In this document: positions 51,395-59,649 of the stretch, piece after piece
How positions within the stretch are numbered: position 1 is the first letter of the stretch
Layout: every line of letters begins with the position of its first letter
Sequence record: PV018827
Length of the DNA: 64,000 nt
Direction: 5' to 3' (one strand)
From: Escherichia phage KM01
The notes under the pieces: generated by a model
The model's database searches: none
Seen by the model: the letters and a program-made list of their open reading frames with translations, nothing else
Told to the model about the DNA's origin: nothing
Made by a program: the position numbers and the translations under genes

Positions 51395-51409
51395 AGGGGA
51401 AATTCCTTA

Positions 51410-51447
51410 AAAAAAAGTTATGGCTGCGTAGAGGGAATTCCATACGC
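51410..51447 (-). terminator. hairpin plus T8 run (terminator/attenuator) downstream of a GCGTCATAGTACTAAAA motif
   Basis: GCGTA-12 nt-TACGC stem followed on the minus strand by TTTTTTTT, about 15 nt before the start of gene 51161-51394. Confidence 0.4.
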
Positions 51448-51628
51448 AAATTGGGCCGCCCACAGAGAGGCGTCATAGTACTAAAAGGAGGAGAGAAGAG
51501 AGCCTATTTAGCTACCTTTTTCTGTCCGTTTACGAACCAGATAATTGAACCGTCAGGCTGTCGTTGACCGAAGCCTTTCTGGTTAATCATATCGTCATAA
51601 GAATATGCTTTACGTCTCATTTGTTTTC

Positions 51629-51883
51629 CTACGAAGTTAAGATGATTTCAGCCTTAATAAACTTCTCACCAACAACCATATCACCAGAGATGACACGTAG
51701 TTCTCCAGTGCCTAGGTTAACAGCTCCAGCAGGTTGACAACCCCTGCTTTTAGCTGTCATCATATAAACCTTTTGATTTTGGCACTCTTGGAGAGTGAAC
51801 ACATCTGACATATTTAGATCTCTGACGCGGAGGATTTTTTCCTCTTTGTCTTTAACTTTAATGTTAATAATGCTCATATGCAC
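51629..51883 (-). CDS. small paralog-family protein (member)
   Basis: 84 aa; shares L-x-V/L-x-D/S-L-x-x-G/S-D/N-V/I-F core with 9 other ORFs (ILRVRDLNMSDVFTL). Confidence 0.45.
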   Translation of the reverse strand: MHMSIINIKVKDKEEKILRVRDLNMSDVFTLQECQNQKVYMMTAKSRGCQPAGAVNLGTGELRVISGDMVVGEKFIKAEIILTS

Positions 51884-52128
51884 TACTCCTGAACCACTGA
51901 CATACGAATCATTTCTACCTGATCATCAAGACCTTTAACAGATAACATACCTGTGGAAAGGTTTACCACAGGAACCCAACCACTGGCTATACGGATGTTA
52001 CCAGAAGCATTTTCAACCCTCATGTAATACTGAGGAGAGGCACTTCCGTTCTGAACCACGAAAGGGTTTCCGGGAATGATTGTTTCCAATCGTACCGTAT
52101 TATCCTTTTTCTTTGGGATGATTTTCAT
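51883..52128 (-). CDS. small paralog-family protein (member)
   Basis: 81 aa; VRLETIIPGNPFVV core; overlapping start/stop with neighbours. Confidence 0.45.
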   Translation of the reverse strand: MKIIPKKKDNTVRLETIIPGNPFVVQNGSASPQYYMRVENASGNIRIASGWVPVVNLSTGMLSVKGLDDQVEMIRMSVVQE

Positions 52129-52376
52129 TGCGTATTATCCACTAAAAGTTCTGCTGATACAGGAACAACCTGACAACGACCAAGAGGGGCTGAAACAACC
52201 CCATCACCTAGCCGGAGAGTAGGTATCCGGTTATCTGGGATTTTGATGTTAGGACTTAAGGTAACAATCCCTTTCACATAAAGATCTTCATTGTGTGGGA
52301 ATTTAAACACAGAACCATTAGCTAGAGAGCTTAGCTCTACTGCTTCTACTTCCTCTTTCTTATATGTGATTTTCAT
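52125..52376 (-). CDS. small paralog-family protein (member)
   Basis: 83 aa; VELSSLANGSVFKF core. Confidence 0.45.
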   Translation of the reverse strand: MKITYKKEEVEAVELSSLANGSVFKFPHNEDLYVKGIVTLSPNIKIPDNRIPTLRLGDGVVSAPLGRCQVVPVSAELLVDNTQ

Positions 52377-52384
52377 ATTGATTC

Positions 52385-52696
52385 CTATTTAAGTTTGAGG
52401 CTAATGTTAAGGTGCATACATGCCCTGTTCTGTACAGCAGCATAACTTCTACCGAGCATGTCAGCCATTCTCTGAATAGACATGAACCCAGCATTACGGA
52501 TAAGGAACTGGTCTTCTTCTTCAGACCATTTAACTCGGATTGAAGCTCTTGATATTCCGAATTTAGTACAAGCTGTGTTAACTGCATTCTCCGTTACATT
52601 CATAATCTGAGCAACTTCTTGAACCGAGTACTCTTTGATTAGTCTCCGAAGATTTTCAATCTGCATCGGAGTCCATATAGTTCTTCGTGCTTTCAT
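52385..52696 (-). CDS. DNA-binding protein with two Myb/SANT-like helix-turn-helix repeats
   Basis: Two W-x(2)-E-x-L repeats: WTPMQIENLRRLIKEYSVQEVAQIMNVTENAV and WSEEEDQFLIRNAGFMSIQRMADMLGRSYAAVQNRA. Confidence 0.4.
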   Translation of the reverse strand: MKARRTIWTPMQIENLRRLIKEYSVQEVAQIMNVTENAVNTACTKFGISRASIRVKWSEEEDQFLIRNAGFMSIQRMADMLGRSYAAVQNRACMHLNISLKLK

Positions 52697-52723
52697 ACAT
52701 CCTCCAATTAGCTATTATTCAAT

Positions 52724-52870
52724 TTGGTTACAGGTGTAGGATTCGAACCTACGCTCGGACTCCCTAGCCATCACCAAAGGAATGCATCCAATGGGCATAC
52801 GGTCATTCGACCACGGGCGACTGCTTTACCGTAGACTCTGCATTACTGAGTCCCATAAGCTATACCTGTA
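52724..52870 (-). ncRNA. tRNA-like element: canonical T-arm, acceptor 3' strand and encoded CCA, but 147-nt span to the complementary 5' strand
   Basis: Minus strand ...GTAGG-TTCGAAT-CCTAC-ACCTGTA-A-CCA at about 52724-52752; perfect complement TACAGGT only at 52864-52870; no cloverleaf of normal length found by eye. Confidence 0.25.
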
Positions 52871-53235
52871 ATTAAAAGGTTGTTCCACATTTACCCTAAA
52901 GTTATTGGGGAGTACACTAGCTCTGGGCCACGCTGTAGATATCGGCCTACCTTCCACAGCTAATCAGCTAATGTACTCTCCTAATAGTTTATGAATAGGG
53001 GGAGGGGACGAATCCTCCCTTATCCTATTAATTAATATTGCATGTAAGACCTAACAATCGGTTGCCTTTGTAGGAATAAGCGTAAAGCCAATCCAGCACT
53101 AAACTCCCGCCCCCTTAGTGGGCTGGGTTATTAAAGGGTAACGCCCTTATGGGCTAGTTACATGAATGTTAGTTTGATAGGAGATCTGAAGTCCTATCTC
53201 AAAGGACTCTCGTAAGAATCCTTCACGATAAGCTC

Positions 53236-53409
53236 TTAACAAGATTGATCACATGGCTGATCACCACATGTTTTACAGATCACTGGTGAATAACTACAGG
53301 CAGGATACACTGATACACCATCAAACGTTTCACACCCACAATCAGGGCATATACCATTGGATTCCATGTCATCGTCATCATACACTTCTCCACCACCATA
53401 GCAGCTCAT
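53236..53409 (-). CDS. small Cys-rich (zinc-ribbon-like) protein (below ORF-track threshold)
   Basis: Manual translation MSCYGGGEVYDDDDMESNGICPDCGCETFDGVSVYPACSYSPVICKTCGDQPCDQSC; AAGGAG RBS. Confidence 0.4.
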   Translation of the reverse strand: MSCYGGGEVYDDDDMESNGICPDCGCETFDGVSVYPACSYSPVICKTCGDQPCDQSC

Positions 53410-53418
53410 ATGAACTCC

Positions 53419-57996: not shown

Positions 57997-58195
57997 ATTA
58001 TTTACCCTTTATCAGAGATTAAAAGTAATATTATTTAAGTAAGTTATATTTAGTAAACTTATTTTCTAAGAAATTTTCAAAGGGTCTATATACAGAGCAT
58101 TACCCATAGTCCCAGAATACTACCATCTTTTTCAATAAATTTACTAAGTGGTTGGTTTATAAAGGAATTTAGTTTGTCAAATCTGGCACTAGTGA

Positions 58196-58585
58196 TTATT
58201 CCCTAGAGCTGTTATCGAACACTAAATCACCACAATACATAGGATTGGCATACCATTTTGGCACCCCTTCGCTCTTACTCTGAAAGTAAGTCCCACTGTA
58301 CAGCGGAACATAATTCTTCTTAAGGGCACGTTTAGCCAGCCGCTCGCTTTCTCCAATGGCTTGCTTAGTCATCGGATTTTTATCACGAATCAGCTTTACA
58401 TAACGTTTATAAGGTTTCTCCTGTTTTAATAGTACCGGAATCCACTCAAACTGGTTCTTTTGTCTTATCACCTGTTCAGCGGTCAGTTTTCGTTGGGCCA
58501 TTCTATTTATCACGGTATCCGCAACTAAAGCCTTACATGCGGTTGGCTGGTTCCCTGCCTCATAATAAATAGTCAATGTCAACAT
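58196..58585 (-). CDS. SleB-like cell-wall hydrolase domain protein
   Basis: N-terminal YYEAGNQPTACKALVADTVINRM resembles the conserved EA...G..AVA.VI.NR core of SleB/Hydrolase_2 proteins. Confidence 0.45.
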   Translation of the reverse strand: MLTLTIYYEAGNQPTACKALVADTVINRMAQRKLTAEQVIRQKNQFEWIPVLLKQEKPYKRYVKLIRDKNPMTKQAIGESERLAKRALKKNYVPLYSGTYFQSKSEGVPKWYANPMYCGDLVFDNSSRE

Positions 58586-58666
58586 TAGCTGTGCCGTTGT
58601 TATCAGAACTTGCTACCTCCTCTTTTGTTGTTTCAATAAACACCCTCGAAAAGATGCTTATAGAAA

Positions 58667-58690
58667 CACCCCTCCCGAAAGGGAGAGGTA
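58667..58690 (-). terminator. weak hairpin terminator after the adhesin-like gene
   Basis: CCTCCC-gaaa-GGGAG(A)GG imperfect hairpin just downstream of stop at 58696; T-run weak. Confidence 0.3.
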
Positions 58691-58695
58691 TTATC

Positions 58696-59286
58696 TTACC
58701 ACTCATAACTTACACCAGCACCCAGAACAGCGTCACTCTCTGAAGTCATTGCCACTGATGCTTTAGTTACTACGTTTTCATTGAAACGAGCACTAACACC
58801 AACAGCAAGAGCAGATTCACCATCGTAAGCACCTACCCCAGCACCAACAGAGAAAGCAGATCCCTGACTTACTTGCGGGATGTTAGCCATTGCAGCCACA
58901 CCAGAAATACCAGCAGAGGCATGATCACGGTTACGGTCTACTTGTTTTTGCAAAGAAGCAAAACGTTTATTGGTGGATTGTTCCAGAGCTTTGATGGATT
59001 TGGAGTTAGCATTAACGGCAGACATATCTGCATCTTTACCATTTTTGCCATTTAATCCGTCAACGCCATTCAAACCTGCTGCACCAGTTAGGCCAGTTTC
59101 GCCTTTCTTACCATCTGCACCAGAATCACCTTTTTCACCTTTAAACCAATCTCCGATACCGCAACCATTGGTAGATTGACCTACACCACAACCTCCATTG
59201 CCATTGCCATTGTTTCCACTTTTAGCAATAACAGGCGATGCCATTACGGACAGAGCTAGGATTGAGGATAATACAATTGCTTTCAT
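58696..59286 (-). CDS. secreted collagen-repeat protein with YadA-like C-terminal outer-membrane anchor
   Basis: Track frame 58696-59415; likely start MKAIVLSS at 59286; signal peptide; G-X-Y repeats GEKGDSGADGKKGETGLTGAAGLNGVDGLNGKNGKD; C-terminus GISGVAAMANIPQ...AVGVSARF...LGAGVSYEW typical of trimeric-autotransporter anchors. Confidence 0.6.
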   Translation of the reverse strand: MKAIVLSSILALSVMASPVIAKSGNNGNGNGGCGVGQSTNGCGIGDWFKGEKGDSGADGKKGETGLTGAAGLNGVDGLNGKNGKDADMSAVNANSKSIKALEQSTNKRFASLQKQVDRNRDHASAGISGVAAMANIPQVSQGSAFSVGAGVGAYDGESALAVGVSARFNENVVTKASVAMTSESDAVLGAGVSYEW

Positions 59287-59298
59287 TTCATAGATTCC

Positions 59299-59307
59299 TA
59301 TACAGTA
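59299..59307 (-). promoter_or_regulatory. TACTGTATA promoter-like motif directly upstream of the adhesin-like gene
   Basis: Minus-strand CTACTGTATAGGAATCTATGAAATG between terminator T-run and start codon; same 9-mer at 24361-24369. Confidence 0.3.
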
Positions 59308-59312
59308 GACAT

Positions 59313-59338
59313 AAAAAAGCCCCAGCCGTAGCCGGGGC
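59313..59338 (-). terminator. strong rho-independent terminator
   Basis: GCCCCGGC-tacg-GCTGGGGC hairpin followed by TTTTTT on the minus strand. Confidence 0.65.
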
Positions 59339-59401
59339 AAACCTGAAAGCAACACATGACCGTTGCTATAAATACACTCGCAAATGCACTTACAGCAACG
59401 C

Positions 59402-59422
59402 AAAAAGCCGCTCAAAGGCGGC
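59402..59422 (-). terminator. rho-independent terminator (tandem with 59313-59338)
   Basis: GCCGC-ctttgag-CGGC hairpin followed by TTTTT; preceded by GCGTCATAGTACTAAAA repeat copy. Confidence 0.45.
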
Positions 59423-59649
59423 TATGCGGAAGCTTCAAATGGGGAGAGGGCACGACGCGACAGAAAGAGCGTCATAGTACTAAAAAGAGAGGCTATTGGA
59501 GAGGTTACTTATTGCCTTCCTTAATGCCTTGTTTTCTTGTTTAACCAATTCGTTTTCTTCTTGCAAGGATGCTACCAGATGGACCAGAACATCAACTACT
59601 GCATCACCTTGCCGCATCTCTCTGACTTTATTTAGAATCTCTGAATAAA

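Follow-up and report, generated by a model that had tools for sequence, protein, structure and literature searches.

A conserved box and hairpin element at two sites in the early region of a phiEco32-like coliphage: a possible nut-like RNA signal

What does a short sequence do that is kept at two distant intergenic sites of a phage early region, each time just ahead of hairpin structures? The question is raised by a stretch of 64,000 nucleotides (nt) from Escherichia phage KM01 (sequence record PV018827; the whole stretch is referred to below as the window), in which an original prediction noticed a repeated 17-mer followed on the minus strand, at two loci, by a hairpin and a run of T, and likened the arrangement to short transcription units (small RNAs) or promoter-proximal attenuators. 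Judging from comparison with related phages, the element is a conserved, non-random cis signal and apparently one not described before. We tentatively read it as a recognition site on the sense-strand RNA that would work together with downstream terminators in a nut-like way.

Copies, setting and conservation of the element

The 17-mer, GCGTCATAGTACTAAAA on the plus strand, is present in two exact copies and no others, at 51470-51486 and 59469-59485, which bears out the predicted repeat with the first copy beginning 2 nt before the position originally given for it. These two remain the only matches when up to three mismatches are allowed, against a chance expectation of 0.12, and none of 100 shuffled sequences held two or more copies. 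The repeat lengthens to 21 nt at 95% identity, with a spacing of 7999 nt between copies. The genes near both loci lie on the minus strand, in a leftward early cluster of homologues of phiEco32 genes 93-124, and the transcribed-strand reading of the 17-mer is TTTTAGTACTATGACGC.

The window resembles about 110 phiEco32-like coliphages (Gordonclarkvirinae), YW01 being closest at 97% and phiEco32 itself standing at about 94%; it is a phiEco32-like (Kuravirus) coliphage. Forty-one fetched loci were compared. They come from Kuravirus, from Suseptimavirus (among them EK010, SU7 and IME267), from Nieuwekanaalvirus (KBNP1711, EP335), and from IMG/VR and metagenomes, harvests of the last two adding few extra lineages. 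Both intergenic regions are present in about 97 phage records, and the element is kept at both sites in about 100 related genomes, so that the lack of conservation which would have spoken against the original prediction was not found. Every locus that is long enough for both copies has the 12-mer [A/G][G/C]TACT[A/G]TGACG at the two syntenic sites and nowhere else, and in all three genera the two copies share their orientation and position despite differing flanking genes. Variants specific to a genus are common to both copies, AG in Kuravirus against AC elsewhere and TGTG in both Nieuwekanaalvirus copies, and this sharing of the AG/AC and A/G variants fits a single co-evolving reader. No third copy was found in the window or in the remaining phiEco32 sequence (the genome ends). 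The two copies bracket a hyperplastic array of tiny early open reading frames (ORFs), the span varying from 4.7 to 8 kb. Site-specific excision between the direct repeats as the origin of the 67-69 kb genomes was considered and rejected, as those genomes keep both copies, 4.7 kb apart.

The element and the genes next to it are as follows.

51470-51486, minus strand: copy 1 of the element, at locus 1; linear box TTTTAGTACTATGACGC, its core being AGTACTATGACG; an exact repeat, whose core all relatives keep at the syntenic position behind the gene-94 homologue
59469-59485, minus strand: element copy 2 (locus 2), linear box TTTTAGTACTATGACGC; its internal TAG is the stop codon of a 57-amino-acid ORF at 59480-59653
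51487-51503, minus strand: C/U-rich tract (GGCTCTCTTCTCTCCTCC) that separates the box from the stop codon of the gene-94 homologue
51504-51620, minus strand: gene-94 homologue, 38 amino acids, directly upstream of copy 1 in all genera
51161-51394, minus strand: gene-93 homologue, 77 amino acids, PHROG 6662, the first gene after copy 1
59650-60093, minus strand: gene-120 homologue, 147 amino acids, 24% Lys+Arg, the conserved gene upstream of copy 2 in all genera
58699-59286, minus strand: gene-119 homologue with signal peptide, collagen repeats and YadA anchor, the first gene past terminator T2 (see below)

Copy 1 thus lies 18 nt past the stop codon of the gene-94 homologue and 75 nt ahead of the start codon (ATG) of the gene-93 homologue. 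Copy 2 shares bases with the stop codon (TAG) of the 57-amino-acid ORF that comes after the gene-120 homologue, and is succeeded in turn by a terminator (T1), a hairpin of 14 base pairs (bp), a second terminator (T2) and the gene-119 homologue. Both sites are 68-73% pyrimidine and fall within the top 0.1-1.6% of sense-strand segments for C minus G; the 60-nt segment at the locus-1 C/U tract (68% pyrimidine) ranks 451 of 27,940 on that measure.

At locus 2 the core and T1 are near-invariant across four different upstream gene or ORF contexts, and the 25-nt spacer between them is deleted in Suseptimavirus. Downstream of locus 1 the sequences differ, and Suseptimavirus has a 137-amino-acid ORF inserted after the core. 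Small ORFs that differ by phage are inserted between the gene-120 homologue and locus 2 (59480-59653 in the window, 2482-2664 in fetched locus L031, and also in L027); they end at the TAG within the element (TTTTAG), and homology among genomes picks up again about 25 nt upstream of the core. Phage E20-1 carries a divergent allele here (L028 4290-4375), which begins at the 3' end of gene 120 and reaches into the core (ACCACTACGACGC) with loss of the gene-120 stop codon and one mismatch in the T1 stem; T2 is intact, and identity to other Suseptimavirus resumes inside the core.

The adjoining hairpin and the downstream terminators

Alignment and folding indicate that the element is a composite of a C/U-rich tract, a linear box and a hairpin of 5-7 bp (h0) that starts 1 nt after TACT(A/G)T. 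This hairpin and the structures downstream of it are listed below.

51455-51474, minus strand: h0 of copy 1 (GACGCCT / GGGCGGC; minimum-free-energy stem CGCCU/GGGCG, -7.4 kcal/mol), from folding and pair counts
59452-59475, minus strand: h0 of copy 2 (AUGACGC / GCGUCGU, 10-nt pyrimidine loop, -7.8 kcal/mol, z -2.5), from folding and pair counts
59401-59423, minus strand: terminator T1 (AGCCGC-CUUUGA-GCGGCU plus U5; stem 59423-59406, -10.2 kcal/mol), near-invariant in three genera
59365-59396, minus strand: imperfect 14-bp hairpin between T1 and T2, from folding
59313-59338, minus strand: terminator T2 (8-bp stem with 7 G·C pairs, plus U6; 59338-59319, -18.6 kcal/mol, z -4.4), from the terminator scan and folding
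51426-51447, minus strand: hairpin H with the palindrome (G)GGAATTCCC, sequence GCGTATGGAATTCCCTCTACGC, -9.2 kcal/mol, not called by the terminator scan

Folding predicts hairpin h0 in 25 of the 26 distinct variants, with energies from -3.5 to -12.5 kcal/mol. Because the MAFFT alignment of this region came out of register, pairs were counted in a hand-registered, N-padded alignment of 18 variants; 84.1% of its cells can pair, against 29-56% in slid registers, a figure to be read with the bias towards the h0 structure that hand registration brings. Pair 6 is C·G in seven variants, U·A in five and U·G in three, pair 7 also shows double-sided changes, and the covariation score was matched by 3 of 500 shuffles. 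G·U cells outnumber A·C cells on the sense strand by 10 to 4. In copy 2 the 5' arm and loop together read CGCUCUUUC, the 5' half of a boxA. A role for h0 as a terminator in itself was rejected, since the T-run after it is not conserved. A search within the phage for a trans or long-range pairing partner of the box gave nothing beyond the range of shuffled controls.

Both T1 and T2 consist of a G+C-rich stem-loop with a T-run directly after it, as is characteristic of intrinsic terminators, and both are annotated as terminators in the WFI101126 record (T1 also in SU7). The hairpin with T-run and the further strong terminator originally predicted at locus 2 are therefore both upheld, and T1 proves to be physically linked to the element, lying 21-47 nt after locus 2 in every genome examined, with T2 in Kuravirus. 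The interval between T1 and T2 holds a 40-amino-acid hydrophobic ORF instead in KBNP1711 (L008 3884-4006) and unrelated sequence in Suseptimavirus. In phiEco32 the annotated coding sequence phi32_119 (798 nt) starts inside T1 and spans T2; as it runs through T2 its annotated start is almost certainly over-extended, the likely start being the ATG at window position 59286. The gene-119 homologue is variously annotated as a tail protein or an adhesin.

At locus 1 the predicted hairpin is present (H, 51447-51426), but the T-run that was to make it terminator-like is not in a canonical place: the T8 run at 51409-51416 lies 9 nt past the stem and is followed by the ribosome-binding site AAGGAA and the gene-93 homologue ATG (51394), so that H is not a canonical intrinsic terminator. 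Across relatives the locus-1 core is followed by a hairpin that contains GGGAA(W)TTCCC. Each 20-kb locus has this palindrome once, in every case 24-40 nt beyond the locus-1 copy (L001 2895-2904, with equivalents elsewhere); the window's own version (51433-51442) is mutated to TGGAATTCCC, and a related sequence, GGGAACTCCC, stands after T1 at Suseptimavirus locus 2.

Leaders of the early promoters

A second set of hairpin-associated boxes lies at the head of the same early cluster.

63404-63376 and 62771-62743, minus strand: canonical early sigma70 promoters, followed by boxA leaders
62639-62654, 62872-62887, 63332-63347 and 63440-63455, also 63574-63585, minus strand: rrn-type boxA copies, CGCTCTTTAA(A/C/T)AAT, with a small hairpin before each

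Four exact copies of GCTCTTTAA are found in the window, all on the sense strand and within 62.64-63.45 kb. In Kuravirus, Suseptimavirus and Nieuwekanaalvirus alike, a small hairpin and, after it, CGCTCTTTAA(A/C)AAT lie downstream of each canonical early promoter, at about +20 to +95, an arrangement kept in phiEco32, EK010, KBNP1711 and NC-B. The loop AGAAAG of one of these leader hairpins stays constant while its stem covaries between genera (GTGTG/CACAC, ACGTG/CACGT, AAGTG/CACTT). We take the leader sequence to correspond to the rrn boxA consensus in boxB-boxA order. In RNA terms, the hairpin is followed by CGCUCUUUAA(A/C)AAU, close to the rrn boxA UGCUCUUUAACAA, and four or five leader copies at 62.6-63.6 kb match the consensus GCUCUUUAACAA. 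The presence of a hairpin and boxA behind all canonical early promoters suggests Nus-factor (boxA) processive antitermination of the early operon, which this phage group very likely uses. A literature search found no mention of boxA together with phiEco32.

Possible functions of the element

The reading that we favour, tentatively, is that the element is a sense-strand RNA recognition site which works with the downstream terminators in a nut-like manner. The signal would be read on the sense strand of the early polycistronic transcript, and would consist of an unstructured C/U-rich tract, the linear box A[G/C]UACU[A/G]U and the adjoining 5-7 bp hairpin (GACGCY...RGCGUC), placed just after a stop codon, at both borders of the variable block of tiny genes and directly before terminator or hairpin structures. 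Box and hairpin could recruit or load a factor, probably phage-encoded, which would gate the passage of host RNA polymerase from one early sub-operon to the next; the element would then be an antitermination or reload site acting with T1 and T2, in a phage whose early leaders already carry the rrn-type hairpin and boxA. We infer action at the RNA level, a binding factor and an effect on termination because the core is invariant despite changing flanks, h0 covaries, G·U pairs are favoured on the sense strand, T1 is linked to the element and the setting is pyrimidine-rich with C in excess of G.

The order of gene, box with hairpin, terminator or terminators and next genes parallels the cro-nutR-tR1 layout of lambda. 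In common with lambda nut, a linear box would stand beside a small hairpin in the nascent early transcript, behind a gene and shortly before terminators, in few copies per genome and in a C-rich, G-poor setting; at locus 2 the element lies on the transcript between promoter and terminators, as a nut site does, and carries CGCUCUU(U) as lambda boxA does, in a phage that also has boxA leaders. In contrast to lambda, the conserved box (AGUACUAUGACG) is not a boxA, the loop is pyrimidine-rich and variable (5-10 nt) where boxB has, on a 5-bp stem, a conserved purine-rich, GNRA-like pentaloop to which N binds, no spacer separates box and stem, no N-like protein was recognised, the phage is virulent and the two sites stand in series in one operon. 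Set against the lambda boxA reference, CGCUCUUA-like, locus 2 reads CGCUCUUU in Kuravirus, CGCUCUUC in Suseptimavirus and CGUUUCUC in KBNP1711. The sense strand holds eight copies of the 8-mer CGCUCUUU / CGCTCTTT, one of them in the locus-2 hairpin, and the opposite strand holds one. With respect to rrn antitermination, the rrn spacer boxA would have a counterpart in a second site inside a long operon, but the element has only the 5' half of a boxA, lacks the 3' half of the consensus, shows this at locus 2 only and has its invariant part upstream of that half. A nut-type site is the closest functional analogue by comparison, although the element has the defining features of neither lambda nut nor rrn boxA.

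Several observations weigh against this reading. Locus 1 is followed by the GGGAATTCCC hairpin, which is not a clear terminator, and a strong terminator at 60897-60870 has no element ahead of it. Promoter-like sites further downstream (for example at 58057-58030) mean that only genes 119-117 would strictly need readthrough of T1 and T2. The support for h0 is tempered by the registration bias mentioned above, by the lower conservation of its loop and 3' arm relative to its 5' arm, and by KBNP1711, in which locus 2 has essentially no stem. The boxA-like position reads CGCCUCUCU / CGCCUCUC at locus 1, so that boxA-likeness is confined to locus 2 and is not the conserved feature of the element. 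The locus-2 core of E20-1, a viable isolate, has two changes (TACTAT to CACTAC). Finally, no N-, Q- or NusG-like protein, sigma region 2, nuclease or RNA-binding protein was recognisable among the early proteins. The basic product of gene 120 is a candidate reader by position only. A gp99-like helix-turn-helix (HTH) protein was considered as the binder and rejected, as it is absent from Suseptimavirus loci that retain both elements. The gp99 homologue in the window ('D5-like transcriptional regulator', 52385-52696, minus strand) has two HTH motifs, with Sigma70_r4_2 above the Pfam cut-off (E 1.7e-7), and is 64-98% identical among Kuraviruses and undetected in Suseptimavirus loci.

Three other explanations are viable, each of them on the unlikely side. 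The element could be an unusual promoter, with TACTAT as a -10-type element used by host RNA polymerase that is helped or re-targeted by a putative phage factor; transcription from locus 1 would then give the gene-93 mRNA, and that from locus 2 a short attenuated transcript or small RNA with its end at T1. We regard this as rather improbable. T-12, A-11 and T-7 are invariant in TACTAT/TACTGT except at locus 2 of E20-1, with A or G at -8, as a -10 element would require, and conservation at locus 2 centres on two pieces, the element and T1, as in a promoter-terminator unit, both the core and the T1 stem being altered in E20-1 while T2 is intact. Moreover, in unrelated Vequintavirinae phages the homologue of gene 93 is preceded at a comparable distance by a canonical promoter of its own, TTGAC(G/A)-17-TAGTAT, and single-element promoters without a -35 box are used by the phage sigma factor gp36 too: the element shares with these and with T4 late promoters (TATAAATA) a short, -35-less TAnnnT motif at the start of gene blocks. 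Its sequence, however, differs from that of gp36 promoters (AATGTA/tAATGTAtA is unmatched at both loci with up to one mismatch), and it belongs to the early region, whose transcription precedes the synthesis of gp36. The -35 position at 17-bp spacing, GCCCTC, matches at none of six bases, conserved upstream bases are offset by 9 nt between the loci, no TG is present (-15/-14 is TA or AA), positions 6-9 downstream, where transcripts would start, are all pyrimidine (GACGC[C/T]TCT), and neither site was called by the sigma70 scan. A covarying hairpin begins 1 nt after TACTAT, so its 5' arm would be lost from an RNA started 6-8 nt downstream, and at locus 2 firing into two terminators would not aid expression of the genes beyond. 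In the accessible parts of the published lists, phiEco32 has six gp36 promoters (consensus tAATGTAtA, upstream of genes 6, 13, 26, 40, 58 and 68), with four sigma70 early promoters at the head of the early cluster, the only place where the phiEco32 and SU10 lists put early promoters; no published gp36 or early sigma70 promoter falls at either element locus, and the element is missing from what these lists give. Of the short transcription unit or attenuator originally proposed, a conserved cis signal tied to terminators thus stands, whereas the 17-mer as an ordinary promoter, lacking a -35 box and TG and facing a pyrimidine start, does not. The small RNA proposal is weak too: besides the weak promoter features, conservation is lacking in the body that links element and T1 and is deleted in Suseptimavirus, a covariance-model search with Rfam found no family at either site (the best match was MicX, E 0.59, 20.8 bits against a gathering score of 75), and no complementary target was found in the phage. 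Control by a leader peptide, in which the ATG or GTG of the core starts a short ORF that modulates T1 or couples to gene 93, is very improbable. The A/G polymorphism preserves a start codon, and the window's version of the ORF ends at locus 2 with a TAG that directly adjoins the T1 stem, and at locus 1 with a stop 3 nt past the gene-93 ATG. There is no Shine-Dalgarno sequence, though, the codon is ACG in E20-1, many genomes stop early (MTLFL and stop), and the peptide is conserved no more than the DNA motif imposes; with 4 to 30 codons and no constant frame, the model is largely refuted.

A site of RNA processing or stability is similarly doubtful. Cleavage in the A/U-rich box would leave h0 to protect the 5' end of the gene-93 mRNA and, at locus 2, would release a small RNA from the 3' untranslated region (h0, C-rich stretch and T1); alternatively, h0 and T1 could protect the 3' end of the upstream message. 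A single-stranded A/U-rich box directly 5' of a stable hairpin, just past stop codons, would suit such a site, the wobble bias on the sense strand supports an RNA hairpin, and locus 2 has a hairpin, a C/U-rich single strand and a terminator with a U-tail, the typical layout of small RNAs processed from 3' untranslated regions. Against this, the box has no RN↓WUU-type RNase E motif, and an invariant sequence of 12-13 nt is unexpected for RNase E; the h0 stems (5-7 bp) are far too short for RNase III, which in T7-type sites acts on about 20 bp of double-stranded RNA, the separate T1-T2 hairpin having 14 bp; and the putative seed region is absent in Suseptimavirus, the lack of an Rfam family and of a target within the phage counting here as well. 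At the DNA level, and less probably still, the element could serve a phage DNA-binding protein as operator or roadblock, or act as a recombination linker at the borders of the hyperplastic region, like T4-type PeSL cassettes. It has a non-palindromic invariant box of 13-17 bp, a 5' arm more conserved than the 3' arm, and module junctions beside it (the 57-amino-acid and other ORFs upstream of locus 2, the 137-amino-acid ORF downstream of locus 1 in Suseptimavirus), and the distance between copies varies from 4.7 to 8 kb; PeSL cassettes likewise pair a conserved short sequence with a stem-loop at the borders of hyperplastic small-ORF regions, next to breakpoints in gene content. An early protein with sigma-region-4 HTH motifs exists, but it is undetectable in Suseptimavirus loci that keep both elements and is 64-71% conserved where the element is invariant. 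Binding to the duplex does not explain compensatory changes or the sense-strand wobble bias, two copies are few where shuffling cassettes would be expected in many, and no early promoter is recognisable inside the element.

Returning to the sense-strand RNA signal, a more specific version of it would give these virulent podophages two tiers of antitermination, in which the rrn-mimic leaders behind all early promoters load Nus factors and the element is the site of a putative N analogue with a new RNA specificity, re-arming or gating the polymerase at both borders of the block; as a whole we consider this version unlikely. The published phiEco32 map, as far as it is accessible, has its early promoters at the head of the cluster only, which leaves the crossing of strong internal terminators unexplained. 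If the nut-like reading is correct, the element and the rrn-like boxA leaders would add a layer of elongation control to the phiEco32 model, and the element could serve as an RNA bait for finding a new factor that modifies RNA polymerase. If it is a factor-dependent promoter instead, it would represent a third promoter class in this phage group. With its sigma factor gp36 and gp79, phiEco32 serves as a reference for how a phage controls the RNA polymerase of its host.

A few further candidates and sites were noted during the analysis. A gp36 promoter at the element was rejected, as there is no consensus match and the one-mismatch sequence TACTGTATA at 59307 is at chance level; a sigma70 promoter on the opposite strand, TTGGGC-17-CATAGT, was likewise set aside, being found at Kuravirus locus 1 and neither at locus 2 nor in other genera. 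An exact gp36-type motif, TAATGTATA, lies at 63505-63513 (minus strand) in the early promoter region, upstream of the first hairpin-boxA copy, and others are at 13558 and 24352 (plus strand) and at 24288 and 31012 (minus strand), several of which fit published gp36 promoters. A weak Rfam match to Phe_leader at 55908-56046 (plus strand; 34.4 bits against a gathering score of 55, E 0.013) is probably spurious, and overlaps a strong terminator-like hairpin on the minus strand (56041-56016). About 75 large Vequintavirinae-type myoviruses, with Klebsiella, Salmonella, Cronobacter and Erwinia as hosts, have homologues of gene 93 (PHROG 6662), and in the two examined, KB57 (L034) and 4MG (L035), these homologues lie among tRNA genes behind a canonical promoter. 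A moving cassette of gene 93 with its promoter was rejected as the origin of the element, as the Vequintavirinae homologues have an ordinary promoter and no element.

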